Below, in pieces: positions 1-26,335 of a stretch of 64,000 nt of DNA. The notes under the pieces are model-generated. The model was not told where the DNA came from. It ran no database searches and worked only from the letters and a program-made list of their open reading frames with translations. The DNA is taken from positions 64,001 through 128,000 of IMG/VR virus record IMGVR_UViG_2816332320_000003. One strand, given 5' to 3'. The translations under genes were made by a program, and so were the position numbers. The first letter of the stretch is position 1. Every line of letters starts with the position of its first letter. The stretch comes from a virus (lineage: Duplodnaviria; Caudoviricetes).

Positions 1-44
1 TGTGTGAAAAGTTGTCTACACTCCTAATGAGGGGTGTACGATCT

Positions 45-377
45 ATGGAGCTTGTTTTGCAACACATAGGGAAAATGATTCGTGAAATTCGAAAGGCGCA
101 AGGGTTGAGCCAAGAACAATTAGCCGAAAAGGTTGGAACAAAACATACAGATATAGGAAAGCTAGAGCGCGGAGAGCGGAATGTAACCCTAAAAACACTT
201 GAAAAAGTGGCTTCCTCATTGGAAATTGAAGTGTATAAGCTATTTGAATATGACATTCAGGAAAAATCTACAGAGAAAGAGTATTTAATAAACAGGATAA
301 ACCAAAGTCTAATTGATATGCCTGAGTCAGATTTAAGAAAAGTTTTGTCCATATTGAATATTATTTACAATGAATAA
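45..377 (+). CDS. XRE-family HTH transcriptional regulator
   Basis: IREIRKAQGLSQEQLAEKVG...IGKLERGERNVTLKTLEKVA HTH_3 signature; GGGGTG RBS before ATG 45. Confidence 0.9.
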   Translation: MELVLQHIGKMIREIRKAQGLSQEQLAEKVGTKHTDIGKLERGERNVTLKTLEKVASSLEIEVYKLFEYDIQEKSTEKEYLINRINQSLIDMPESDLRKVLSILNIIYNE

Positions 378-379
378 TA

Positions 380-401
380 GCTCTAGAAATTAATCTAGAG
401 C
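380..401 (+). terminator. intrinsic terminator hairpin
   Basis: GCTCTAGA-AATTAA-TCTAGAGC followed by T-rich tract just after stop. Confidence 0.6.
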
Positions 402-489
402 TTGCTTTGTTTAGCTTTAAAAATTTTCATTTTTAAGTGGTTACACAGTTATAAATCATAGATAATCAAAATTGCTTAAAGTGATGAGC

Positions 490-888
490 TTAGCATAATA
501 CTGGTATGACATCTGTCCAATCAATTGAAAAGTCATTAACTTTCATGTCTCCTACATTGGTTTCAACTTCATTAATTACTATATTCAATTCACTCATTGC
601 ACAATTGGCTGCATAAATTGCATCTTCTTCATTTATCTCAAAAGGGTGTGATACGTATAGAGTTAATGTACCGAACCAATTGTCTCCATATCTATCTTCC
701 CAATCTAATGACCAGTCATGAACTTTTGGAAAAAACACTTCTCCACTTAGGGAGAACAATTGCAGCATCTTAAGATTAAACCATACTTCTTCCACATATA
801 CATTAGACTGCACGTTTAACACAAGCTTACCGAAGACTTGAGATTTTACTTTTACTTTTCTTTTATTTAGAATGAGAATGGGTGTCAT
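490..888 (-). CDS. hypothetical protein, SOS-controlled
   Basis: 132-aa ORF with GGAGG RBS; upstream sigmaA promoter and LexA box. Confidence 0.7.
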   Translation of the reverse strand: MTPILILNKRKVKVKSQVFGKLVLNVQSNVYVEEVWFNLKMLQLFSLSGEVFFPKVHDWSLDWEDRYGDNWFGTLTLYVSHPFEINEEDAIYAANCAMSELNIVINEVETNVGDMKVNDFSIDWTDVIPVLC

Positions 889-975
889 TAAGATGCCTCC
901 TCTAAGCGCTCCTTTCGTCTTGGTCGGATGGTGGGGCGCTTTGATGTTTTTTAAAAGTACAAGATTCTCATATAA

Positions 976-987
976 GAACGTTAGTTC
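976..987. promoter_or_regulatory. LexA/DinR (Cheo) box
   Basis: GAAC-GTTA-GTTC immediately downstream of minus-strand TTGACT-N17-CATAAT. Confidence 0.75.
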
Positions 988-1068
988 CTATTATGGGTTA
1001 TGCAAACCTTATAGTCAATGCCTACCTCCCATTCAATTAACATCTTCTATTAAAATGCAAAAAAGAAC

Positions 1069-1097
1069 TTGAATTTTAATATCTAAAATATTATGAT
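1069..1097 (+). promoter_or_regulatory. sigmaA promoter of tubRZ-like operon with phage operator-like box in spacer
   Basis: TTGAAT-N17-TATGAT; spacer contains TAATATCTAAAATAT. Confidence 0.6.
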
Positions 1098-1147
1098 ACA
1101 TTCATGGATATACCAAAATATTCAAATGCAATATCGGAGGTGTTAAT

Positions 1148-1420
1148 TTGTCATCAGAATATTTTGATCTAATAGTCAAACGTTTGAGTAGAGAAGATTT
1201 GATTTTATTAGAGATATTACGAGAGGAAGAGGCAACAATGGCTAGATCCTCACTGTCAATGCAGAAATTACAGGAAAAGTCAACATTGACTGATGCATTG
1301 TTTCGAAAAACTGTTTATAGACTAAATGCTAACTACTTCGTCGAATCAGAAACAAATAATAAGACTCAATCTTATTACTTAACAGACTTCGGAATACAAG
1401 CAATAACTAAAACTAATTAA
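1148..1420 (+). CDS. winged-helix DNA-binding protein, TubR-like adaptor
   Basis: 90 aa, C-terminal wing YYLTDFG; GGAGG RBS; directly upstream of tubulin-like gene. Confidence 0.65.
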   Translation: MSSEYFDLIVKRLSREDLILLEILREEEATMARSSLSMQKLQEKSTLTDALFRKTVYRLNANYFVESETNNKTQSYYLTDFGIQAITKTN

Positions 1421-1440
1421 TTAGAAGGAGTGGATTTATT

Positions 1441-2562
1441 GTGATAGCTGTTGTGGGTTTGGGTGGTGCAGGTGGAAACTGCGCTGACGAGGCAATAAAA
1501 CGTGGTTTTTATGGGGTTGCAATTAACTACTCTGATCGAGATTTAAGGGCACTGGAACACGTCGAGCATAAGTTGAAGCTACAAGGCTCTGAAGGCGTTG
1601 GAAAGAATCGTGAGGAAGCGACAGCTCTTCTCTCTACTCAATATGATGCTGTGGTTAAATGGATCATTGACCATCTTTCTTCTCCTTCGATCAAAATTAT
1701 AGCATTTTACTACTCCACCTCTGGTGGCTCAGGATCTGGAATCGCTTCTCTGCTTATGGAATTACTTCAAAGTATCATGCCTGATAAGACAATAATTGCA
1801 TTCCCAATTCTTCCTGATCTAAGTGAAGACGAAACTGCACAATTGAATTGTCTTGCTGCATCTGAGGAGTTATCAAAACTTAATGTACTCTCCTTTCCAA
1901 TTGACAATCAACAAGTCAAGAATGGAAATAACAATATACCTAAAAATAAGATATATGAAATCACAAACACAAATGCAGTCTATTTGCTCCATTCGGTTGT
2001 CTCGTACATTGAACTATCTAGTAAAAACGGAAACTTCGATGAGCAGGATCTCCTTACTGTTTTAGGCACCAAAGGCGTTGGTCATATTTGCGAAGTCAAT
2101 ATAAAAACCCCTGTGAACATTGAGCAAACATCTCAAGGGCTTACAGATATTATTCATGAGCAATGGAAAACATCAATATTCGCCCCCATCGATTATCAAC
2201 ATGTCACAAGAGCAGCAGTTATCTTTGATGGTGACGAGAAATACACTGACTTGATCTCACATCAGGATATGTTCTCTGTGTTTGAAAATGGCACACCAAT
2301 AGGATTATATGAAGGATACTACCACAATTCAGCAAACAGGATTATTACGGTCTTAACTGGACTTCCATGGTTTACCTCAAGATTGAAACAGATTGAGCAT
2401 ATCATTGAACAGAACACTAGTAAGATTGAAACTGTTCTCTCTAGCCAAGCTGATACCTCCTATGTTTCATCAGTATCTAGTATTGCAAACAAATTAAAAA
2501 GCCCCATTAAAAGTACTCCTAAATCGTCTACAGCAGATATTGTTGCGAAATATAAGCGCTAA
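1441..2562 (+). CDS. tubulin/FtsZ-family GTPase (TubZ-like)
   Basis: VVGLGGAGGN, EGVGKNRE, SGGSGSG tubulin signature, FDEQD T7-like loop. Confidence 0.88.
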   Translation: MIAVVGLGGAGGNCADEAIKRGFYGVAINYSDRDLRALEHVEHKLKLQGSEGVGKNREEATALLSTQYDAVVKWIIDHLSSPSIKIIAFYYSTSGGSGSGIASLLMELLQSIMPDKTIIAFPILPDLSEDETAQLNCLAASEELSKLNVLSFPIDNQQVKNGNNNIPKNKIYEITNTNAVYLLHSVVSYIELSSKNGNFDEQDLLTVLGTKGVGHICEVNIKTPVNIEQTSQGLTDIIHEQWKTSIFAPIDYQHVTRAAVIFDGDEKYTDLISHQDMFSVFENGTPIGLYEGYYHNSANRIITVLTGLPWFTSRLKQIEHIIEQNTSKIETVLSSQADTSYVSSVSSIANKLKSPIKSTPKSSTADIVAKYKR

Positions 2563-2570
2563 ATTGTTTT

Positions 2571-2593
2571 GGGTGCAGATTACTGCACCCTTT
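2571..2593 (+). terminator. intrinsic terminator
   Basis: GGGTGCAG-ATTA-CTGCACCC-TTT after the tubZ-like stop. Confidence 0.7.
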
Positions 2594-2747
2594 AGAATAC
2601 AGACATTATTGTTCGGCTTTATTAATTCCGCCAAAGTATAGACCCCGTAAATTTTTTCACCTCTTAAGCTTGATTACCTCTAATAACGAACGTTAATTAA
2701 TCTCTCGTTTCAATTGTTCGGTTATACTCCAAAAAAACAACCCGTCA

Positions 2748-3773
2748 TTATGACAGGTTGTTTTCGTTGTATATCTGTTTAATCATATCAATGTTGATAT
2801 ATTCTTTCATAGGGTGCCAATTGTAACCCTCGTAACCGTTATTGTTGATTTTTCCAACTCCAAATTGCTCACAAACCTCTAAGTACTGCTCTTTTTCTAA
2901 TTTACCATCTCGCTCAAGAATTTCTTTTGCATGATAGAGCATACCACTACGCTGTATATTCTTCACAGTAAAATTCTCTAATACAAACATTTCACTGATT
3001 GTAGATAGTCGAGCATAAATAAGATGGGTATTTACTTGCTCTATGTGAACAGTTTTAGTTTTTGCTGGTTTAATAACATAACCTGTTTCAATTAATTGAC
3101 TTACTTCTTTGGTGTTCCTTGAGTTAGGATTTATATGACCGTTTCGCTTGTAATACTCTGTTTGCATATCAGCTTGCTTAATTAATGCAATGCACTCACT
3201 AGGGACTTTAATTATCCTAGTTTGTCCATCCTTATCATCTGTTAGTATCACTTCACTTGTCTCAAGACTGACATCACTTGTGCGTAAGTTTCTTAGTTCT
3301 GAAACTTCTCGTCCATTTGCCCCATAGAATAGCAATGAAATAATTACAGCATCTTGAGCATTCCTACATCTATTTATTATTTCATCAATCTCCATCTTAG
3401 AATAGAATAGTTTTATATTATCATCTAAGAATTTTTCAGCCCAATTATCAAATTGGTATCTCATAGGATTGATGGTGTTTGATCTATACCCTTCTTCAAT
3501 TGCCCAGTCAATATATGAAGATATAATGCTTATATTGGACTTACTTGCAGCAGCAGTCTTTGGTTTTAAATGAAATAGGACGTTCTCAATTTCTTTAATA
3601 TTAAAATCATACATATCTCTATTCAAACTAGCTTCTACAAGACTACTCCTAATAAAAATCCTTTCATAAGGACCTTTACTGTCATCTGAAATCTCTTCCA
3701 TAAACCTGTTTTTCACTTGTTCATTAAAAATATTATCTTGATAAATTTGATTAGGGGCATTTTTGTTAGACAC
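2748..3773 (-). CDS. catalytically degenerate tyrosine-recombinase-fold protein; SPbeta MrpR/YopR/SroF-like master repressor
   Basis: SAM-like N-terminus; LLFYGANGREVSELRNL (interrupted GxRxxE), KNIQRSG in place of HxxR, no recognisable C-terminal H/Y pair; follows DGQHR gene as in SPbeta yopQ-yopR. Confidence 0.75.
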   Translation of the reverse strand: MSNKNAPNQIYQDNIFNEQVKNRFMEEISDDSKGPYERIFIRSSLVEASLNRDMYDFNIKEIENVLFHLKPKTAAASKSNISIISSYIDWAIEEGYRSNTINPMRYQFDNWAEKFLDDNIKLFYSKMEIDEIINRCRNAQDAVIISLLFYGANGREVSELRNLRTSDVSLETSEVILTDDKDGQTRIIKVPSECIALIKQADMQTEYYKRNGHINPNSRNTKEVSQLIETGYVIKPAKTKTVHIEQVNTHLIYARLSTISEMFVLENFTVKNIQRSGMLYHAKEILERDGKLEKEQYLEVCEQFGVGKINNNGYEGYNWHPMKEYINIDMIKQIYNENNLS

Positions 3774-5085
3774 CTTTTAGACTCCCCTCTAGTGGAATTT
3801 GTTTAAAGTAGTCACGCACAAACTTTTTGAGTTTCTTGTTTGATATTGGGACATTCATATTTTTCACTTCTTGAATAAATGTATTATTCTCAGTGAGGTC
3901 TATCTTAGAAATGATATCAGCCACAGATCTAGCTGGTACTTCGTTATCAAACATCTGTTTTGCTAGGGATAGATAACCAATGAACATGAAATGCTTAGAC
4001 ATTAATGTTTCTCCACTCTTCTCCTTTGCAAATTCGTGTGGGAAAGAGCCAATTAAGTAATCAAAAAATACAATGAGGTAGTTGGCTAGATTTAATGCCT
4101 CAATTTTAGAATTTAACTTAAACTGTTCTTCTATTTCTTCAGTTAAAAGTTTGTAACTTAATAAATGACCAACAGCATGATTTAGTAAGTGTGTTGGTGA
4201 AACTCTATTCCTTAATTCTGATTCTTTTTGTAATTCTTTTGCAACAATATCACTATACCTGTCAGCTCTAAGTTTCTGAATGTAAGTATTGGGCATTTTA
4301 TTAACTGTATTGATTTGTGCAACATATGCTTGCGCCTCTTTAGTAGAGAAGTTTTTTATGGCAACTTGTACTTTTAAATCTTCATCAGGGTTCAATTGAT
4401 TAATAACTTGAGAAAAAGCATTTAATCGATGGAAACCATCTAGGATATCTATTTCACCTGATTTGATTGTTAATCTCGCATGTTTCTCATCATAACTTAG
4501 TTCATCTCGTCCATCAGCTAAGAGATTCAAAATAATGGTATCTGCTCGAAATGTTTTATTTAGAATGTGCTCTACAATCTCTTTAACTGATTGTTTGTTT
4601 ACATTTGCTAATGTTACAATCTTCCCTTTTTTTAATCGTTCTTTTGGATTTCTCTGTGTTTCAGGGTTATATTCAATTAATTGCGAGTTGTCCCACTCAA
4701 CTAGTGTTTTAATTGGCAATGCTGTAATAAATTCTTGGTCATTAAGATAAACAACATTTTCAATATTTATAGGGAGTGCAATTCTCTCGTCTAAAAACTC
4801 TTTGTGTCTAGAAGCCACTTGTATTTCACGTTCATTAAAATAGATCTCAGGGTTAAAACGATTCTCGGTAGTCAAGGTATAAATAGAGTTTGTGAGCAGA
4901 AATAAAAGAGTGTCATCTAACTCTCCAATAGGTGTAAATTGATTAATTATCTTCTGCACGTCCCCAGCTAGAATATTATATTTAGCTAGTTCACCCTTAA
5001 GCTCTTCTGTAAATTTCGAATCAGATTTTATATCTTCGAATTTTTGTAATAGAACTTGCTCCAATTCTGATCTATTGACCTTCAT
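3766..5085 (-). CDS. DGQHR/DndB-domain (ParB-like fold) protein, YopQ/SroE-like
   Basis: YNPETQR and IDILDGFHRLNA motifs; GGAAGGTG RBS before ATG 5085; overlaps sroF-like gene. Confidence 0.8.
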   Translation of the reverse strand: MKVNRSELEQVLLQKFEDIKSDSKFTEELKGELAKYNILAGDVQKIINQFTPIGELDDTLLFLLTNSIYTLTTENRFNPEIYFNEREIQVASRHKEFLDERIALPINIENVVYLNDQEFITALPIKTLVEWDNSQLIEYNPETQRNPKERLKKGKIVTLANVNKQSVKEIVEHILNKTFRADTIILNLLADGRDELSYDEKHARLTIKSGEIDILDGFHRLNAFSQVINQLNPDEDLKVQVAIKNFSTKEAQAYVAQINTVNKMPNTYIQKLRADRYSDIVAKELQKESELRNRVSPTHLLNHAVGHLLSYKLLTEEIEEQFKLNSKIEALNLANYLIVFFDYLIGSFPHEFAKEKSGETLMSKHFMFIGYLSLAKQMFDNEVPARSVADIISKIDLTENNTFIQEVKNMNVPISNKKLKKFVRDYFKQIPLEGSLKGV

Positions 5086-5223
5086 GAAATCACCTTCCTC
5101 GATATTCAGTTTATTAAAATTGTAGTCATTTCCAACTTTAATTATACCTAAATCCACTATAAACAACAATGAGTATTTATTTTATTTATATAAGCAAAAT
5201 CCCCTATCGCTAGGGGTTAAATG

Positions 5224-5841
5224 TCACTTCTTGTCCAATCCCATTATAAATGTGATTGTCCTGAATGAATTGTTTGATGTTGCTAATTGTAGGGCAATCT
5301 TTCTTAGTGCGGCTGCATCTTTAGTTCCATTTAATTTCGAAATAAATTTGCCCCTGATATCCTTTTGACATTCATCGCAATACCAATGTTGCTCATACTC
5401 AGGTGTGAATTGAGTATAGCATCCACCATTATAGCAAACGTTATCTTTTAACTTAACAGCCTTACCATACGTTTTGTAGCCCGCCTGTAGCATAGCTTCT
5501 GTCCATGTTAATTCTCTTTTAGAAAGTGCTTCACTATCTGGCTTAAGCTTCAATTTATCGTACTCAGTAGATGTCGGCACGTATCCAAGTTCCTTAATTG
5601 ATTCTTTGAGTTGTTGCACCAATTCTTCAGCAGTTAACATGGAAGGATGGGGCATAATATTGGCTTCACGTAGCATATTAGTCCATCCAAAATGATCTTT
5701 AATGTAAGAATAAGAAGGCTTTAGACCAGATTTCTTGTAAATTTCTGGTGTTACATTACCCTTGTTTTCTGTCGATAATGCGCGCAAATTTCTGAGTACT
5801 AGCTTTTTTGCTTCAGCTTCAGTGTAAACATTTGACACCAC
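5224..5841 (-). CDS. protein with homing-endonuclease-associated repeats and Cys cluster
   Basis: two repeats (VTPEIYKKSGLKPSYSYIKDHFGWTNML / VPTSTEYDKLKLKPDSEAL..LTWTEAM), CYNGGC...YCDEC. Confidence 0.55.
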   Translation of the reverse strand: MVSNVYTEAEAKKLVLRNLRALSTENKGNVTPEIYKKSGLKPSYSYIKDHFGWTNMLREANIMPHPSMLTAEELVQQLKESIKELGYVPTSTEYDKLKLKPDSEALSKRELTWTEAMLQAGYKTYGKAVKLKDNVCYNGGCYTQFTPEYEQHWYCDECQKDIRGKFISKLNGTKDAAALRKIALQLATSNNSFRTITFIMGLDKK

Positions 5842-5894
5842 TTATCACCCCATCACTGATTATAAGGTAGAGTTTTACACAAGACAACAAAGAT

Positions 5895-5920
5895 AAAACC
5901 ATACTTTAAGTATGGTTTTA
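5895..5920. terminator. hairpin, probable terminator
   Basis: AAAACCATACTT-T-AAGTATGGTTTT inverted repeat. Confidence 0.55.
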
Positions 5921-5924
5921 AGAT

Positions 5925-6155
5925 TTAATTTATTATAGGCATATTTGGCATTTTACTGATCATTGGATTGTTCTTGTAGAACTCATTAAGACATCGGATA
6001 TATAGAATTAAGTCGTTCCATTCTTTCGTGGTGACTTTTTCATATTGATTTACTGTCTCATAGAAAATAACTAGGCATTCATTACTTAAAGTAGCAGCAG
6101 GATCAGTCCTACGAATATGAGTACCGTTGCCTCTCTCGCTTTTCACTAAAAACAT
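5925..6155 (-). CDS. hypothetical protein
   Basis: 76-aa ORF with AAGGAGG RBS. Confidence 0.65.
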   Translation of the reverse strand: MFLVKSERGNGTHIRRTDPAATLSNECLVIFYETVNQYEKVTTKEWNDLILYIRCLNEFYKNNPMISKMPNMPIIN

Positions 6156-6291
6156 TGTCTGTAGTACCTCCTTATTATCACGTCCCTACTGCAAGGGCTT
6201 TATTTCTCGATTCTTCCTTTACTATCGTGATACTATATATTAATTTTACTTAAAATGCCTTGTGCTACATCTTTATTTTGATTTATTTTGC

Positions 6292-6789
6292 TTATGCCAC
6301 TCTTGCCTCGTTCCATGAAACTGCACAGCCTAAACAATCTAACGAGATATAGTCACCACTTGTCGTTTGAAACAGAACCTCATCTTTAGATTCTACGTTT
6401 GCCCATGTCCAGCTCTTAATTGACTTAAATAGATTCACTTCGGCGTTTATAACCAACATCCCAATTACTGTATAAGTATCAGATTCTTCATAAGCTTCCA
6501 TCCATTCCAATGTAAAGCTATCCACCCTTATTGCCCTTTCAGGTACGTTGTTTTGCAACAAAACCTTACTGATATACATATCATTAAGCATGTATTGTGC
6601 TGCCATCAGTGCACTCTCTTGATCCTCTGTGTCAATATTATAAGCTGCTACTCTTATCTTAATAACGCCACAAGCTGTAGCTTTAGCGCTAACCTCTGCC
6701 CTCTTACCTGTTTTCTTTTCGTGCATCTTCTTGGTTGCCACTTCAATCATTTCTATTGATCTGGAAAGTTTCTTATTTATACCGTTCAT
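6292..6789 (-). CDS. hypothetical protein in the AimX position (probable AimR target)
   Basis: ORF with GGGGTG RBS directly downstream of aimP-like gene and its terminator. Confidence 0.65.
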   Translation of the reverse strand: MNGINKKLSRSIEMIEVATKKMHEKKTGKRAEVSAKATACGVIKIRVAAYNIDTEDQESALMAAQYMLNDMYISKVLLQNNVPERAIRVDSFTLEWMEAYEESDTYTVIGMLVINAEVNLFKSIKSWTWANVESKDEVLFQTTSGDYISLDCLGCAVSWNEARVA

Positions 6790-6798
6790 AACAAACAC

Positions 6799-6873
6799 CC
6801 CATGACAAATTTATTTTATACTTATACAGTATCATGGGTTGGCAAGAATCATGACTAATATTTTTTTTGCCAA
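6799..6873. promoter_or_regulatory. candidate AimR operator region (widely spaced inverted repeats)
   Basis: CCCATGA-N26-TCATGGG (6799-6838) and TTGGCAA-N21-TTGCCAA (6839-6873). Confidence 0.45.
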
Positions 6874-6903
6874 TTGTTATTTTTTATTGACTAAAAGAAA
6901 AAA

Positions 6904-6917
6904 GTGGCTTTCGCCAC
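6904..6917 (-). terminator. terminator after aimP-like gene
   Basis: GTGGC-TTTC-GCCAC stem followed on the minus strand by a T-run. Confidence 0.6.
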
Positions 6918-6926
6918 CCATTTCTT

Positions 6927-7022
6927 TTACCAGCCACCACCCGGATCTTGTTGAAGGATCACAAGTGCAACTGGTACAATATAAGCCAGAGCCATTAAAA
7001 GTTTTGCTTTCGCTGCTTTCAT
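6927..7022 (-). CDS. aimP: arbitrium-type signalling pro-peptide MKAAKAKLLMALAYIVPVALVILQQDPGGGW (not in ORF track)
   Basis: 31 aa; GGGAGGTG RBS overlapping end of receptor; basic N-terminus, hydrophobic core, C-terminal DPGGGW. Confidence 0.8.
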   Translation of the reverse strand: MKAAKAKLLMALAYIVPVALVILQQDPGGGW

Positions 7023-7028
7023 TAGTAC

Positions 7029-8375
7029 TCACCTCCCTTCAAGCAGCGACTCAAATTTCTGCCTCTGTTCATTATTTAATGAGAAATTATTTTTATATAT
7101 TATTTTGGTTCCTTCTCTAAATCGTTTCATTTGACCCATCTCTACTGCCAGTATCAAGCATTCAATAGCTTGATTAATGGCTTCGTGTGAGTTTTTAAGT
7201 TCAGAATAGTACTTAGCCAAGGCAGATCGAAGTCTTAAGGTTGATTTTTTAATCAACATGTAATCATATTCAGAAAACTGATCAATTATATTTTTGTATT
7301 TATTAATTAAATTACTTGCCTCATTTGGCATACCATGTTTTAAGTAGCACTCAACTGCTAAAGGTAAAACATAATAGAGGTTTTTCGGATCTTGCTCATT
7401 CGCCCAATCAATGTAATCATTGATCGCAGAACAGTCCCCTTTTTCAATTAAGGTATAACTTTTATTGCCAATAGCTATATTCTTAAAATAGTCATTGATC
7501 GCTGCATACCTCTCAATTATCAATAAAGACTCTTCATATTTCTCCATCCCTCTATATGCATAAGCCTGATAAATCAATGACTCTCCAATGTATTTCTGGT
7601 ATGGGGCATGATATTTTTCTTTATTAATTGACAGTGAAATAGATTCAAGCTCAATTGCATAGTCTAATAAATTCTCCCAGTCCTCCATAACATTGAAAAA
7701 TGTTAAGGTTCTATAGTACGCATCAAGTTTTACATTGTACAATTCACCGTCTTTTTCAATGAATTCATCCGGAAGTAAAATGAGATAATCTAACAGTCTA
7801 TGTAGTGCCTCTTTTCCCTTCCCCTGCAAGTCTTGATCTCTAAGTATCATAAATTTTTTAAAATAGCATATAGCTAGTTTTTCACTCTTTTTCTGTTCTT
7901 CTTTGATGATCTCGTTATACAATTCCAATGCAAAATCATATAATTTCATTTCATATAGTTTGTCAGATATTCTTAAAACTAAGTCTTTATTGGATTTAAC
8001 ATCTTGATTAAGAATTTCATAGGTTATTGCCTTTGCTAACAATGGCAAATCAGCTTCATAGCAACACATGATGAATTCTTCACACTTTGCTACTTTGTAT
8101 TTCCCGTTACTATCAATGCACTCACTTACAAAGTCATAATACAACTCCCCTTTTTTAAGACCAAGTGTATCTGAGATTAGATTAAGATGTTCAAGACTCA
8201 TTGGTCGAGGATCATCATTTTTTAGTATTTTATTTAAAGTTGTAGCGTGGATTCCTGTTGCTTCTGCAATGTCTTTTTGCATCATACCTTTTTGATCCAT
8301 GAGAGAGGAAATCTTGCCTCTAAGATTGCAACGTGCAATATCCAATTCAATCTTTTCGTTACTTTGGATAAGCAT
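7029..8375 (-). CDS. aimR: RRNPP-family HTH-TPR peptide receptor (AimR-like)
   Basis: N-terminal XRE HTH (QKDIAEATGIHATTLNKIL), helical TPR-like repeats, adjacent pro-peptide gene, SPbeta-like synteny. Confidence 0.8.
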   Translation of the reverse strand: MLIQSNEKIELDIARCNLRGKISSLMDQKGMMQKDIAEATGIHATTLNKILKNDDPRPMSLEHLNLISDTLGLKKGELYYDFVSECIDSNGKYKVAKCEEFIMCCYEADLPLLAKAITYEILNQDVKSNKDLVLRISDKLYEMKLYDFALELYNEIIKEEQKKSEKLAICYFKKFMILRDQDLQGKGKEALHRLLDYLILLPDEFIEKDGELYNVKLDAYYRTLTFFNVMEDWENLLDYAIELESISLSINKEKYHAPYQKYIGESLIYQAYAYRGMEKYEESLLIIERYAAINDYFKNIAIGNKSYTLIEKGDCSAINDYIDWANEQDPKNLYYVLPLAVECYLKHGMPNEASNLINKYKNIIDQFSEYDYMLIKKSTLRLRSALAKYYSELKNSHEAINQAIECLILAVEMGQMKRFREGTKIIYKNNFSLNNEQRQKFESLLEGR

Positions 8376-20048: not shown

Positions 20049-20276
20049 CTATTTGCTGTTATGCTGCTCTATCATCTTCTGAATCTCTGCTAATAACTTC
20101 GGATCATCTGGCAGCTCAATCTTGTTTTGCTTCTTGATGACAATTTCCTTGTTCTCAGTTACTTCAACTGATAGCATATCACCATACTCTGCACCAATTA
20201 GTTTCAACTGTTCAGTAATTGAGACTCCCAAGCTAGTTCCAATCTTGATGACTTTTCTCTCCTGCAATTGGTTCAC
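20049..20276 (-). CDS. AbrB/MazE/SpoVT-family DNA-binding protein
   Basis: RKVIKIGTSLGVSI...GDMLSVEV...IVIKK swapped-hairpin signature; own TTGCAC-N17-TATAAT promoter. Confidence 0.75.
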   Translation of the reverse strand: MNQLQERKVIKIGTSLGVSITEQLKLIGAEYGDMLSVEVTENKEIVIKKQNKIELPDDPKLLAEIQKMIEQHNSK

Positions 20277-23186: not shown

Positions 23187-23210
23187 TCTCCTTATAAAAT
23201 AAGTCTTTTA

Positions 23211-23618
23211 TTATCTTGTGCAGCACGTTAATGCAAGTAATTTGCTTCTTGGTGTTTTAGGGTTATTAATTTTACTAAAAATCTGTTCTAATCTGTCGAT
23301 TTGCCTAGTAATTAATGCATTAACAATTCCTCTTGGAATGTAAACTTTCTCAATTTCAACCCAGAAAGTATTGTCCTCCAAGCTGTCTAACGACTTCCAT
23401 TCTTTAAAGTGTCCTCTTGAATTGTCTTTGTAGATAACAACCACTGGGAAGCTTGAACCTAGAGCCTCAATATAAAAATCTAAGAATTCCTTTTTTAGGC
23501 TTCCTTTGAATGAATAAAGAAATCCCTCAAATTCAGATGATTCAAATTTTATTTCTTTCATGATTTCACTAACCATCTTTATCACCCCTGCCCGATACAA
23601 TATGTTCTTTATATCCAT
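23211..23618 (-). CDS. hypothetical protein
   Basis: ORF overlapping HNH gene end; start probably 23576. Confidence 0.55.
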   Translation of the reverse strand: MDIKNILYRAGVIKMVSEIMKEIKFESSEFEGFLYSFKGSLKKEFLDFYIEALGSSFPVVVIYKDNSRGHFKEWKSLDSLEDNTFWVEIEKVYIPRGIVNALITRQIDRLEQIFSKINNPKTPRSKLLALTCCTR

Positions 23619-24231
23619 TACTCAGCCATACATAAATTTTAAAGTATCGATCTCTGTTATAAATGTCGTTTTTCTTATTATACCAGTTATTTAAGCTTTC
23701 TGTACGTTTACTCGAATTACAACCATGACAACTGGGAATGCAATTCTTCAAGTCGTTACGACCATTGAAAATAACATGTTCTTTATGTAGACCTTGATTC
23801 CTATACTTATTCTTGTGGTCATCCTCTGAAAGACCACAGTATGCACACTCAAATTGAAAAAATGTTTTACACGCAATCCATTCTTTTTGTGTTATGTTAT
23901 GTTTTCGTTGGCTTCGCCTCTTTTCATTGTACGTTTTTATTTTATTCTTGTTATTTTTTCGCCACTTCGAAGCATACTGCCTTTTGAAGTCTCCCAAATT
24001 TCTATCAATTATTTTTTGTTTTTCTTTCAGCCTTTCCTTGTTCTTTTTATACCATTGCTTTTTGTATGCCATATATTCTTCTTTATTGTCTACTGCATAT
24101 TTCCTACTATTTTCTTTGAAACAATCCCTGCACCATGAATTAAGTCCATCTTTTCTGTTTTTATCTTTGTAAAAATATTCTTCAGTAGCAGGATAGGCTG
24201 CCTTACATTTTGTACACGCTTTATTCAACAT
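23569..24231 (-). CDS. HNH endonuclease with N-terminal zinc finger
   Basis: CTKC..CRDC; CAYCG...HKEHVI...NCIPSCHGCNSSK. Confidence 0.85.
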   Translation of the reverse strand: MLNKACTKCKAAYPATEEYFYKDKNRKDGLNSWCRDCFKENSRKYAVDNKEEYMAYKKQWYKKNKERLKEKQKIIDRNLGDFKRQYASKWRKNNKNKIKTYNEKRRSQRKHNITQKEWIACKTFFQFECAYCGLSEDDHKNKYRNQGLHKEHVIFNGRNDLKNCIPSCHGCNSSKRTESLNNWYNKKNDIYNRDRYFKIYVWLSNGYKEHIVSGRGDKDG

Positions 24232-24337
24232 TATATCCCTTTCTATTCAACTCTTGGTACTGTTTAATGAGTATGTCTTTTGCTACTCCAGTTATACCTT
24301 CTCGCTCCAACTTCTTAGCGAATTCATTAATTTTCAT
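24221..24337 (-). CDS. 38-aa peptide immediately downstream of mazF (not in ORF track)
   Basis: MKINEFAKKLEREGITGVAKDILIKQYQELNRKGYNVE; GAGGTG RBS; overlaps HNH start. Confidence 0.55.
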   Translation of the reverse strand: MKINEFAKKLEREGITGVAKDILIKQYQELNRKGYNVE

Positions 24338-24351
24338 TAATATCACCTCTA

Positions 24352-24768
24352 TTAGATTGCCAAACATCCAACCTTATTTGTTTTCATTTTCTTATTTTTA
24401 ATTGCTAAAAAATCTTGAGGTGTAATTAAGCTCAAACTTACCTCTAAAGCTTCATTTACGTCTTCCATGGTTTTAAAATTCAAAGTTGCCACTTTACGAG
24501 ACAATCGTTGTTTATCAATTGTTCTAATCTGCTCTAGTAGAATAACACTATCTTTTTCGATGTCATAATCTTTCGCGCTAATTTCAACATGAGTTGGCTG
24601 TCTTCCCTTCGAAATTTGAGAAGTAATTGCCGCAACAATCACCGTTGGGCCAAATTTGTTTCCAATGTCATTTTGGATGATAAGGACTGGTCTGTTACCA
24701 CCTTGCTCACTTCCTACAACTGGAGAAAGGTCAGCTAAGTAGATCTCCCCTCGATATACTGGCTTCAA
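24352..24768 (-). CDS. mazF: MazF/PemK-family endoribonuclease, close to Bacillus NdoA (EndoA)
   Basis: [32 protein letters not shown]...VAAITS...[17 protein letters not shown]; catalytic Arg and Thr retained; own promoter, no upstream antitoxin ORF. Confidence 0.93.
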
Positions 24769-24918
24769 GTTTTCTCCTCCCTTTTCTTCATTTTTGATTT
24801 ATAATATCTATTATTTTTATGTCTATAATATACCACGACAAATTACCCATTGCAAGTAAAATTATACAATACAACGATAAAAAGACCTTAATTGGTAAGG
24901 TCTTTTTAAGCGAAGGAT

Positions 24919-25260
24919 TCACTTTGTTACACTAATAAGATTTTCTATCTTGATCCATTCAGAACTCCAGTCACTGATAAGCTTAAACCGTCTTTTATTA
25001 GCGTCTATCTCCTTTACAACACCCCATGAAGACTCCAATGTCCCCAGATTACCTTTCGCTGGCTGAAACCATTTAACATCGATTGCATAGTCATACTGTG
25101 TACTGTCATAGATACGAAAGCACATCTCACCAAAATCATCATCATCGACATAAGGCTTCTCCTGCAATCCACGTTTACTTTCATGATCAAGGATAGCAGC
25201 TCTTTGTTCAGGTAAAACCATTCGCATACTTCCAAACAGGTCATTAATCTTTTTGGACAC
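24919..25260 (-). CDS. YolD-like protein (UmuD functional analogue, YqjX family)
   Basis: SMRMVLPEQRAAI motif; LexA box upstream; terminator 24880-24906. Confidence 0.8.
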   Translation of the reverse strand: MSKKINDLFGSMRMVLPEQRAAILDHESKRGLQEKPYVDDDDFGEMCFRIYDSTQYDYAIDVKWFQPAKGNLGTLESSWGVVKEIDANKRRFKLISDWSSEWIKIENLISVTK

Positions 25261-25292: not shown

Positions 25293-25384
25293 GTTTGTTC
25301 TTATATTATGCTACCAGTTAAGGAAAGATGCAAGCAAAAAAGACTTCGCTCTTTTTGGCAAAGTCTTCTAATGAAATGCGTATT

Positions 25385-26335
25385 TTATTTAGTCATGATC
25401 TGACCAAGAAGAGATGCAACTTGTTCTTGAATGTTTGAGGCTACAAGGCTGCCTGTAATCCCTTCTGAAATATTTCTTACAGATTTTAAGGTCTCTGCAA
25501 TTACATTTAACTTTGGCTTTGGTGATTTAACTTGCAATTCTAATACACCAATGTCTGATTCTAGAATTTCTTTCTGTTCCGTGTCATGTACTTCTTTAGA
25601 CATTTTTTTAAGACTTTCAATTAAATGATTTAAGTCGCTCATTTTAATTGAAGAAGTCATTGTGTTAGTTTGGGTTGAATTTTCTGTATGTTGTTGTAAC
25701 TGAATGTTGCCCCCAGATGAGTTAAAGATATTGTTGTTTGTGATAATTTGAGCTGTACTCTTTGCCGCAGTTTCTTCATCTCTCTTTGAAAAGGACATTC
25801 CTTCGCCCAAAACTCCATCCTCCTCTAGTTTTAAACTCCAATTTAGTACAATGGCTCTTACTGCTTCAATAATTTTTTGAAATTGAGATGCAGTAATGTC
25901 TAATTTGCATACCATTGGAAACTCCATATACTTCATAAGATACTCTTGTGTCTTATCTGGGAAGTTCATTTGCAAATAACCTGTTTTAGTTTGTCCTAAC
26001 AAATGCTCGATTTCGCCAACTGAAATATTTATCTTTCGAACAGTTAGTGATTGAGACAATTTTTCGTCTGAAAAAATTGCAGGTATATTTAACCCATTAT
26101 ACGGATTTTTAGCTGTCACTACCCCTCTAATTTCCCGATAGTCAGGTAAACTGTCCAAGGAACCCTTATACCCATTTAGTTCATTGTTAATCCATGCTTC
26201 AAAATCACGAACTTTCAATTTTTTCGCGACCATTAAAGCCTTTCTCAAAAGATCGTTAATCTTACATTTTCCGTCTACTGCTTCTCTTTGAAGTTCTAAA
26301 ACTAGTGAAATGCTGATCCCCCCTTTTTGTCCCAT
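25385..26335 (-). CDS. AbiTii-domain protein (putative anti-phage)
   Basis: SLVLELQREAVD..INDLLRKALMVAKKL...WINNELNGY...PDYR N-terminal AbiTii signature. Confidence 0.75.
   Translation of the reverse strand: MGQKGGISISLVLELQREAVDGKCKINDLLRKALMVAKKLKVRDFEAWINNELNGYKGSLDSLPDYREIRGVVTAKNPYNGLNIPAIFSDEKLSQSLTVRKINISVGEIEHLLGQTKTGYLQMNFPDKTQEYLMKYMEFPMVCKLDITASQFQKIIEAVRAIVLNWSLKLEEDGVLGEGMSFSKRDEETAAKSTAQIITNNNIFNSSGGNIQLQQHTENSTQTNTMTSSIKMSDLNHLIESLKKMSKEVHDTEQKEILESDIGVLELQVKSPKPKLNVIAETLKSVRNISEGITGSLVASNIQEQVASLLGQIMTK

Follow-up and report, generated by a model that had tools for sequence, protein, structure and literature searches.

The mazF locus and its product

The gene considered here, mazF, lies in a 64-kb window (positions 64,001 to 128,000) of the IMG/VR provirus record IMGVR_UViG_2816332320_000003, which comprises 163,172 bp and is located in a 6.64-Mb genome; all coordinates refer to this window unless stated otherwise. 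The gene encodes a predicted toxin endoribonuclease of the PemK/MazF family and is not accompanied by an adjacent gene for the antitoxin MazE. The features of the locus are given below (aa, amino acids; nt, nucleotides; ORF, open reading frame; RBS, ribosome-binding site).

24352..24768, minus strand: mazF, encoding a 138-aa PemK/MazF (EndoA-type) endoribonuclease, with a TTG start and catalytic residues R26 and T49
24355..24420, minus strand: C-terminal extension of MazF (codons 117-138), a predicted helix at 117-132, absent from chromosomal MazFs and conserved in the phage clade
24827..24855, minus strand: sigmaA-type promoter TTGCAA-17-TATATT with an extended -10 TG, conserved in the Brevibacillus gelatini phage
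24878..24908, minus strand: intrinsic terminator of 13 pairs closing the upstream yolD-like unit, with an equivalent terminator at the B. gelatini locus
24221..24337, minus strand: pep38, a 38-aa ORF starting 14 nt past the mazF stop, with the RBS GAGGTGAT and a predicted two-helix hairpin as product

The reading frame of mazF is intact (138 codons, no interruption), and its TTG start is placed 7-8 nt 3' of GGGAGGAG. The product matched the Pfam family PF02452 (PemK_toxin) with an E-value of 1.5e-36 and 125.3 bits (cut-off 23.1) over profile positions 2-108 of 109, and also PHROG 1936, 'MazF-like growth inhibitor' (1.1e-29). The closest solved structures were 4MDX and 4ME7 of Bacillus subtilis EndoA (E=1e-45, approximately 72% identity). 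Residues R26 (in GGNRP) and T49 (in AAITS) align with the catalytic Arg25 and Thr48 of B. subtilis, mutation of which kills the activity of the B. subtilis and B. cereus enzymes (PMC7354611). The AlphaFold2 (AF2) model (pLDDT 83) is an SH3-like MazF barrel, for which the top Foldseek matches were 4HKE, 4MDX and 1NE8 (target-normalised TM-score 0.83-0.85 over 112-114 columns); the proteins concerned were MoxT, EndoA and Staphylococcus aureus MazF. Family, structure, residues and fold thus bear out a preliminary description of the window, which had named the protein a near-canonical Bacillus NdoA/MazF with the catalytic Arg and Thr.

R26, T49 and the entire beta1-beta2 loop are invariant across the six-member phage MazF clade described below, and the loop is identical to that of chromosomal copies. 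The beta1-beta2 loop is a MazE-binding site of MazF, and the beta3-beta4 loop touches Tyr61 of MazE (PMC7354611). Only seven consistent core differences were found in comparison with 94 chromosomal MazFs (K5Y, D8E, F11L, S40G, L57Q, I93V and T94A), one of which, L57Q, sits in the beta3-beta4 loop, the region touching Tyr61. MazF of B. subtilis cleaves U^ACAUA, as do the MazFs of Listeria monocytogenes and S. aureus, and UACAUA specificity is kept by MazFs down to approximately 60% identity (10.64898/2026.08.06.743204). At 72% identity, the phage protein is predicted to be an active EndoA-type endoribonuclease that most likely cuts U^ACAUA.

Five protein clusters and the B. gelatini protein, 65-88% identical to the window MazF, form a phage MazF clade that was monophyletic in the tree (support 0.88). 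Every member has a C-terminal extension of 20-22 aa with the pattern ITPxDF..K...C[LV]AI, which forms an extra helix (residues 117-132) in the AF2 model; chromosomal MazFs end at approximately 116-117 aa and have no such extension. The distance from the phage clade to the chromosomal MazF of Brevibacillaceae was 0.90 substitutions per site, compared with 0.23 between the chromosomal MazFs of Bacillus and Brevibacillaceae. A chromosomal mazF was present in 60 of the 61 Brevibacillaceae species genomes, the phage type additionally in B. gelatini only, and the mazF region is collinear between the window phage and the B. gelatini phage. Because of monophyly, branch length and this collinearity, mazF appears to represent a long-resident phage lineage and not a fresh host copy. 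Recent capture from a host chromosome was considered and rejected on the grounds of the tree, the branch lengths and the occurrence of the phage type in a single one of the 61 family genomes.

Purifying selection on MazF, on its tail and on pep38 is strong across phages that are 65-88% identical. The tail was also considered as a stand-in for MazE and was rejected in this role, being uncorrelated with a missing upstream ORF among 63 viral loci, and basic where MazE is acidic. A near-identity DNA search of GenBank phages yielded no match. Two Brevibacillaceae genomes (G042 and G023) carry a second, longer MazF (frames of 140-154 aa) beside the chromosomal copy.

A MazE of the ribbon-helix-helix (RHH) type, 90-100 aa long and ending at the mazF start, was located directly upstream in 78 of approximately 95 chromosomal mazF loci sampled. 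The 78 proteins were combined into a profile, which found no RHH MazE in the whole 163-kb record, beside mazF or elsewhere, its sole match being the C-terminus of a YosL orthologue (see below). The canonical type II layout of mazEF, with the antitoxin gene immediately upstream and co-transcribed, is absent: a yolD-like gene, then the terminator and the promoter, precede mazF. The region count of promoter-like matches around mazF was not above chance when compared with shuffled sequences; in a phage contig of B. gelatini DSM 100115 (136 kb), the closest relative, the mazF promoter keeps its place and its sequence and likewise follows a terminator. Both the lack of an upstream mazE and the gene's own sigmaA-like promoter, as given in the preliminary description, are therefore upheld. 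Its term 'orphan' is apt insofar as no MazE is adjacent; it overlooked that the phage has a YosL orthologue, that MazF ends in a conserved helix and that the micro-ORF behind mazF is conserved as well.

Phage type, candidate neutralisers and putative cleavage sites

The genes that bear on the type of the phage and on the control of MazF are the following (HTH, helix-turn-helix; TPR, tetratricopeptide repeat).

G000:C1:18452-18790 (= L181:4452-4790), outside the window, minus strand: yosL orthologue, 112 aa, matching the MazE C-terminal profile with E=8e-13
2748..3773, minus strand: master repressor of the MrpR (YopR/SroF) type (PF22822, 4.8e-27; PF22823, 1.8e-19), 20.6 kb downstream of mazF on the same strand
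7029..8375, minus strand: HTH and TPR receptor-like gene, 448 aa, at the position of aimR, matching HTH and TPR models only
6927..7022, minus strand: propeptide ORF, 31 aa, with a signal peptide, ending in DPGGGW, directly after the receptor
6292..6798, minus strand: 168-aa ORF at the position of aimX, conserved in relatives, not MazE-like
20049..20276, minus strand: 75-aa protein like the AbrB/MazE fold (TIGR02609, 1e-5; PF04014, 0.009; both below cut-off)

The phage is assigned to the SPbeta-like temperate phages by its gene content, because it has an MrpR-type repressor with a YopQ-like neighbour, UvrX-like and YolD-like genes, and YosL together with nrd genes. The yosL orthologue stands directly upstream of nrdI-nrdE, as in SPbeta, at a distance of 70 kb from mazF, and the C-terminus of its product shows the motif GY.EMA.INL...E.EA including the key Tyr, which is essential in MazE, AimX and YosL (10.1101/2023.04.27.537455). 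Orthologues were also found in the B. gelatini phage and in the provirus G062. The YosL of phi3T and SPbeta is a lytic-cycle product whose binding to MazF is tighter than that of MazE; it neutralises the toxin and shields these phages from it (PMC10769878; 10.1101/2023.04.27.537455). The phage would accordingly be expected, from its predicted gene products, to carry a toxin and an inhibitor of a proven class in separate operons. Two sense-strand UACAUA sites at L181:4439-4464 (G000:C1:18438-18463) lie on either side of the stretch where yosL ends and nrdI has its ribosome-binding region, and because of these sites the yosL-nrd transcript is a potential MazF target.

The preliminary description had related the gene to published biology, in which host MazF promotes lysogeny and AimX, YosL and SroB tune MazEF, and the literature agrees: MazF is bound by AimX and by YosL, and MazE by phi3T_93 (SroB) (PMC10769878), AimX being a MazF-binding antitoxin of 51 aa, and phi3T lysogenisation requires MazF activity (10.1101/2023.04.27.537455). 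Besides YosL, which is homologous to a proven MazF binder, the candidate neutralisers of the phage MazF are pep38 (by linkage), the AbrB-type protein and host MazE. The AbrB-type ORF at 20049 exists as described beforehand. The B. gelatini phage keeps it collinear with mazF, but a search of the half-complete G062 record did not find it; it is weakly indicated as an antitoxin.

The term 'arbitrium phage' had been used for this virus, and it is supported by the layout, in which receptor and propeptide stand upstream of the repressor operon and the propeptide varies with the receptor. The propeptide ends in DPGDGW in G062, the receptor of which is 54% identical, and in DDGERG in G063 (30%), and all three propeptides have N-termini resembling signal peptides. 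The term is not supported by the 448-aa receptor itself, which gave no AimR match in Pfam (PF22871), in NCBIfam or by tblastn to the AimR of phi3T and SPbeta; as a positive control, the receptor of the provirus G066 matched PF22871 at 1e-41. The receptor-peptide pair is best regarded as a putative family in arbitrium layout that is unrecognised by the Pfam AimR model, arbitrium-like and not demonstrated arbitrium. The propeptide ORFs of the two relatives are located at L186:2820-2942 (plus strand) and L187:1295-1408 (minus strand), and their receptors are HTH-TPR proteins of approximately 450 aa. The ORF at the aimX position (6292), likewise pointed out before, exists and is conserved in relatives, and by the MazE profile it is not MazE-like.

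The hexamer TACATA occurs 119 times on the sense strand of the early region (112 kb), where 46±8 copies are expected under a first-order Markov model (2.6-fold) and 89 under a maximal-order estimate. The first-order model predicts 44 copies of the reverse complement TATGTA in the early region and 17 of TACATA on the sense strand of the late region (49 kb), compared with 54 and 15 observed. Enrichment of UACAUA is confined to the sense strand of the early genes. No copy was found in the sro-like operon (window positions 1-7000) or in mazF, pep38, yolD and abiT. The absence of TACAT from the coding strand of mazF, reported in the preliminary description, holds for both strands of the gene and carries no information, since shuffled 417-nt genes lack it with a probability of P(0)=0.52; self-protection of mazF by the lack of TACAT was rejected on the same ground.

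MazF genes on IMG/VR contigs mostly lack an upstream RHH MazE. A profile-seeded scan of IMG/VR yielded 80 loci, and 22 records of 75-245 kb were screened: PemK was present in 22 of 22, an RHH MazE beside mazF in none. An MrpR-type repressor above the Pfam cut-off was found in nine of these records (eight distinct), in all of which, as in the window, mazF is on the same strand as the repressor and 7-28 kb upstream of it. Counting the window, there are ten MrpR-type MazFs, and six of them end in unrelated C-terminal tails of 17-23 aa. At least eight related prophage lineages carry a MazF without an adjacent MazE, and these phages may own, and not solely borrow, the RNase that is known to direct the choice between lysis and lysogeny. 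A single-protein scan of IMG/VR for MrpR yielded no match, which is ascribed to a limit of the pattern method, and the 40 best MazF matches listed for GenBank phages (INPHARED) include no Bacillus phage. Several large viral records (G065, G064, G076, G077 and G080) have two PemK/MazF genes each.

The nine MrpR-type records include a true arbitrium phage, G066 (IMG/VR provirus 2901201504_000001, 137 kb, rated complete by CheckV). Its AimR matches PF22871 (1e-41) and is 25% identical to the AimR of phi3T and SPbeta, and it has an AimP-like ORF of 38 aa ending in RPPMGG, an AimX-like ORF of 64 aa with the MazE C-terminal motif, a YosL-like gene, and a MazE-less MazF of 119 aa that is 67% identical to the window MazF and encoded 5.4 kb upstream of aimR. 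The stretches of G066 concerned are L195 (G066:C1:73729-76911) and L191 (G066:C1:66622-69942).

Proposed role of the phage MazF in lysis and lysogeny

The reading tentatively preferred here is that an active, phage-owned MazF cuts the early mRNAs of the phage and biases it to, or holds it in, lysogeny, and that YosL, acting in trans, neutralises this MazF when the phage grows lytically. The genes mazF and pep38 would be transcribed together from their own sigmaA-type promoter, and the phage MazF would act beside host MazF, or in its place, in the kind of MazF-dependent control described for phi3T and SPbeta. Its substrates would be the UACAUA-rich early and non-structural mRNAs of the phage, with no excess of sites in the late genes, in the mazF unit or in the operon for lysogeny; such cutting would damp lytic early expression and favour or stabilise lysogeny, and related phages that superinfect would probably be affected too. 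Once the phage is committed to lytic growth, YosL, a MazE C-terminus mimic from the nrd replication operon, would neutralise the phage MazF in trans, so that mazF and yosL, each with a promoter of its own, would constitute a split toxin-antitoxin pair. The sequence shows what the gene is, that it is intact and MazE-less, its conserved promoter, tail and micro-ORF, the presence of YosL, the distribution of sites and the recurrence in MrpR-type phages; what we infer for this phage is that the nuclease is active and with which specificity, when it is expressed, which protein neutralises it and how it affects lysis and lysogeny.

A phage-internalised nuclease arm of the switch, as first suggested in the preliminary description, receives indirect support from the enrichment of UACAUA on early sense strands and from recurrence in MrpR-type phages. 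Overall, the observation made there is confirmed and its interpretation stands in part, namely for the intact MazE-less MazF with its own promoter; it does not stand for the status of a bare orphan or, beyond the layout, for that of an arbitrium phage, and a pure decoy role is unlikely.

Several points weigh against the preferred reading. The same UACAUA bias is reported for phi3T and SPbeta, both without their own mazF (Guler et al.), so that the bias is not specific to mazF carriers; it speaks for regulation by MazF across the phage group as a whole, and by itself for no role of the phage copy. YosL is reported in all SPbeta-like phages, which need it against host MazF anyway (10.1101/2023.04.27.537455), and being thus general to the group its presence together with mazF in one phage proves no pairing. 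The MazE profile found no YosL- or AimX-like protein in five of the nine MrpR-type records, no repressor site is recognisable at the mazF promoter, the tail and pep38 are left unaccounted for, and the AbiT-like neighbour of mazF (see below) suits a reading as defence or moron equally well.

A wider version, speculative and rather unlikely in full, is that a branch of the SPbeta-like phages runs a wholly phage-owned MazF circuit consisting of the RNase, MazE-mimic antitoxins acting in trans (YosL, and AimX in G066) and site-loaded early mRNAs. Peptide signalling and lytic commitment would then control an operon-split viral pair and not a host defence, and the variable tails and pep38 would insulate it from host MazE and from the antitoxins of rivals.

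The chief rival takes mazF-pep38 as a type II toxin-antitoxin or defence module in reversed order, with pep38 as a small labile antitoxin and expression in the lysogen serving addiction or phage exclusion. It is an unlikely explanation on present evidence and compatible with the preferred reading, the two not being mutually exclusive. The 38-aa downstream peptide exists as the preliminary description had it, and its RBS is strong. Homologues of 32-33 aa were found 3' of MazF also in the B. gelatini phage and in G062, i.e., in three of three phages with readable context, even though the MazF of G062 is only approximately 50% identical to the window MazF and has a different tail. Two further members are present in Logan assemblies. 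Among the first four members aligned, 16 of the 27 leading residues are invariant, and over 28 codons the synonymous differences (9-14) equal or exceed the non-synonymous ones (7-10). The modelled helical hairpin is confident (pLDDT 88), and the family is very narrow (two representatives among 1.84 billion proteins). Thus pep38 is a real gene linked to this MazF type, and by linkage alone it is a candidate MazF partner or antitoxin.

The reversed module further agrees with the unit's own promoter and terminator and its place two genes from the AbiT-like gene, with the defence shown for MazEF against SPbeta-like phages lacking antitoxins (10.1101/2023.04.27.537455), and with the existence of small MazF-binding antitoxins such as the 51-aa AimX. 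It is opposed by the dissimilarity of pep38 to MazE, AimX and YosL: the segment KDILIKQY, likened by eye to RDLMRRGY of MazE, had suggested a mini-antitoxin of that type, which was rejected (hmmsearch E=49; hhalign probability 0.6%). Searches for pep38 gave only noise by tblastn in phages and no usable match in the ESM Atlas. A 59-aa relative with a KLEREGITG core (L180:1177-1356, plus strand) stands directly after a tyrosine recombinase/integrase on a 2.8-kb metagenome contig, on which no MazF is near it; pep38 is missing behind the majority of the other phage MazFs, those of G064, G066 and G075 among them; and pep38 has no DNA-binding domain for autoregulation. PADLOC recognised the AbiT-like neighbour as its only match and no system matching the mazF unit.

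A temporal switch resembling that of RegB, in which early phage MazF would inactivate early mRNAs at UACAUA near ribosome-binding regions for the handover to late genes, lysogeny not being the primary effect, is clearly less probable. It fits the restriction of enrichment to early sense strands, the position of mazF in the early region and the precedent of RegB in phage T4. Sixteen TACATA sites are found not more than 30 nt from an RBS-supported start, the top share among 60 permutations of the hexamer, and the overlap form TACAT-ATG is preferred; these start sites, however, concern only 16 of approximately 250 genes. YosL in the replication operon would moreover oppose MazF exactly when shut-off is needed, and phi3T and SPbeta, with the same bias, rely on host MazF.

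The remaining neighbours of mazF are listed below.

24919..25260, minus strand: yolD-like gene (PF08863, 1.6e-10), the upstream neighbour of mazF, not an antitoxin
25385..26335, minus strand: AbiT-like abortive-infection gene with AbiTii N-terminal and AbiTi C-terminal parts, two genes upstream of mazF
23569..24231, minus strand: HNH/endonuclease VII-like gene, free-standing, overlapping the last 11 nt of pep38
23194..23211, no strand: 18-bp palindrome, junction copy at the downstream edge of the mazF block
25371..25388, no strand: 18-bp palindrome, junction copy at the upstream edge of the mazF block

These neighbours bear on a further alternative, very unlikely on the whole, by which mazF would be a moron, a neutral or selfish passenger that contributes nothing to the life cycle and is held in check by host MazE. 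The surroundings of mazF are mosaic, made up of small accessory genes with palindromes at the junctions. The 18-bp palindrome WTVAAA-N6-TTTBAT has 50 matches, both strands counted, compared with 2.4 expected, and one pair brackets five genes (yolD-like, mazF, pep38, HNH and a 135-aa ORF), with no copy inside this block, either at internal junctions or at the mazF promoter. The HNH gene is absent from the B. gelatini locus, where the C-terminus of pep38 diverges from residue 28 on, and is probably a homing-endonuclease-type insertion next to mazF. The AbiT-like protein (316 aa; AbiTii-like N-terminal part, 3e-45; AbiTi-like C-terminal part, 3e-10) appears by these matches to be a fused prophage form of the lactococcal AbiT abortive-infection pair. 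Rfam yielded no match on window positions 20-28 kb. What speaks against a passenger is the strong purifying selection noted above, the position of mazF relative to the repressor, which is kept in ten records, and the conserved mazF promoter.

A pure decoy, also proposed in the preliminary description, by which the phage MazF would titrate host MazE (freeing host MazF) or the antitoxins of rival phages regardless of its own catalysis, is most improbable because the clade and the other phage copies alike keep unchanged the catalytic Arg and Thr and the RNA-binding core, which a decoy would not need, and because the beta3-beta4 loop contacting Tyr61 of MazE is altered by L57Q, although the MazE-binding beta1-beta2 loop is identical to chromosomal copies and phi3T does sequester MazE by another protein, SroB.

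Significance and comparison with known systems

In the current model of phi3T and SPbeta the phage domesticates a host defence nuclease. If some relatives carry their own nuclease, MazF cleavage would be part of the core regulatory logic of this phage group and not an accident of the B. subtilis host, and the system would be portable and testable outside B. subtilis. It would also provide natural MazF variants, with tails, an altered MazE-contact loop and a micro-protein partner, through which one could study the rewiring of toxin-antitoxin specificity in conflicts among phages and between phage and host. A concrete hypothesis is thereby offered for the many unstudied phage genes annotated as 'MazF-like growth inhibitor'. 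The YosL orthologue, the conserved tail and micro-gene, and the recurrence across SPbeta-like proviruses go beyond the preliminary description, and no published discussion of a phage-encoded MazF in this lysis-lysogeny context was found.

Compared with chromosomal MazEF (EndoAI/EndoA, ydcDE/ndoAI-ndoA) of B. subtilis and other Bacillota, the phage toxin shares the subfamily (72% identity), the catalytic Arg and Thr, the fold, the beta1-beta2 loop and the expected U^ACAUA specificity. It differs by lacking the upstream RHH MazE and the alr/rsb neighbourhood, and by having an extra C-terminal helix of 22 aa, an altered beta3-beta4 loop, a 38-aa ORF at its 3' side and a branch four times longer.

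With the arbitrium-MazEF circuit of phi3T and SPbeta the window phage has in common an MrpR-type repressor, YosL before nrdI-nrdE, a receptor-propeptide pair and site-rich early transcripts. That circuit uses the host nuclease, with AimX, YosL and SroB acting on host MazE-MazF, whereas the window phage encodes its own; unlike phi3T and SPbeta it has no MazE-like AimX, and its receptor is no recognisable AimR. G066 combines AimR, AimP, a MazE-like AimX and YosL with its own MazF.

The genes of PHROG 1936, e.g., ORF37 of Psychrobacillus phage Perkons, likewise encode phage PemK/MazF proteins with no upstream MazE and often with a small ORF 3'. They have been annotated and no study of them was found; no link had been drawn from them to lysogeny control of the SPbeta type, to an enrichment of sites or to YosL, and no YosL-like gene was found in Perkons.

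Myxococcus xanthus MazF-mx is a solitary, chromosomal MazF with a developmental role, the antitoxin gene of which is not adjacent and which is neutralised by the unlinked regulator MrpC. The phage MazF resembles it in having no adjacent antitoxin gene; its candidate trans antitoxin is a mimic of the MazE C-terminus and is unrelated to MrpC. RegB of the lytic phage T4 is an RNase with a toxin fold (RelE/YoeB-like) and without an antitoxin, and it cuts early mRNAs at the Shine-Dalgarno sequence GGAG. The phage MazF belongs to an unrelated fold family, and what it shares with RegB is the character of a phage-encoded, sequence-specific RNase with a toxin fold.

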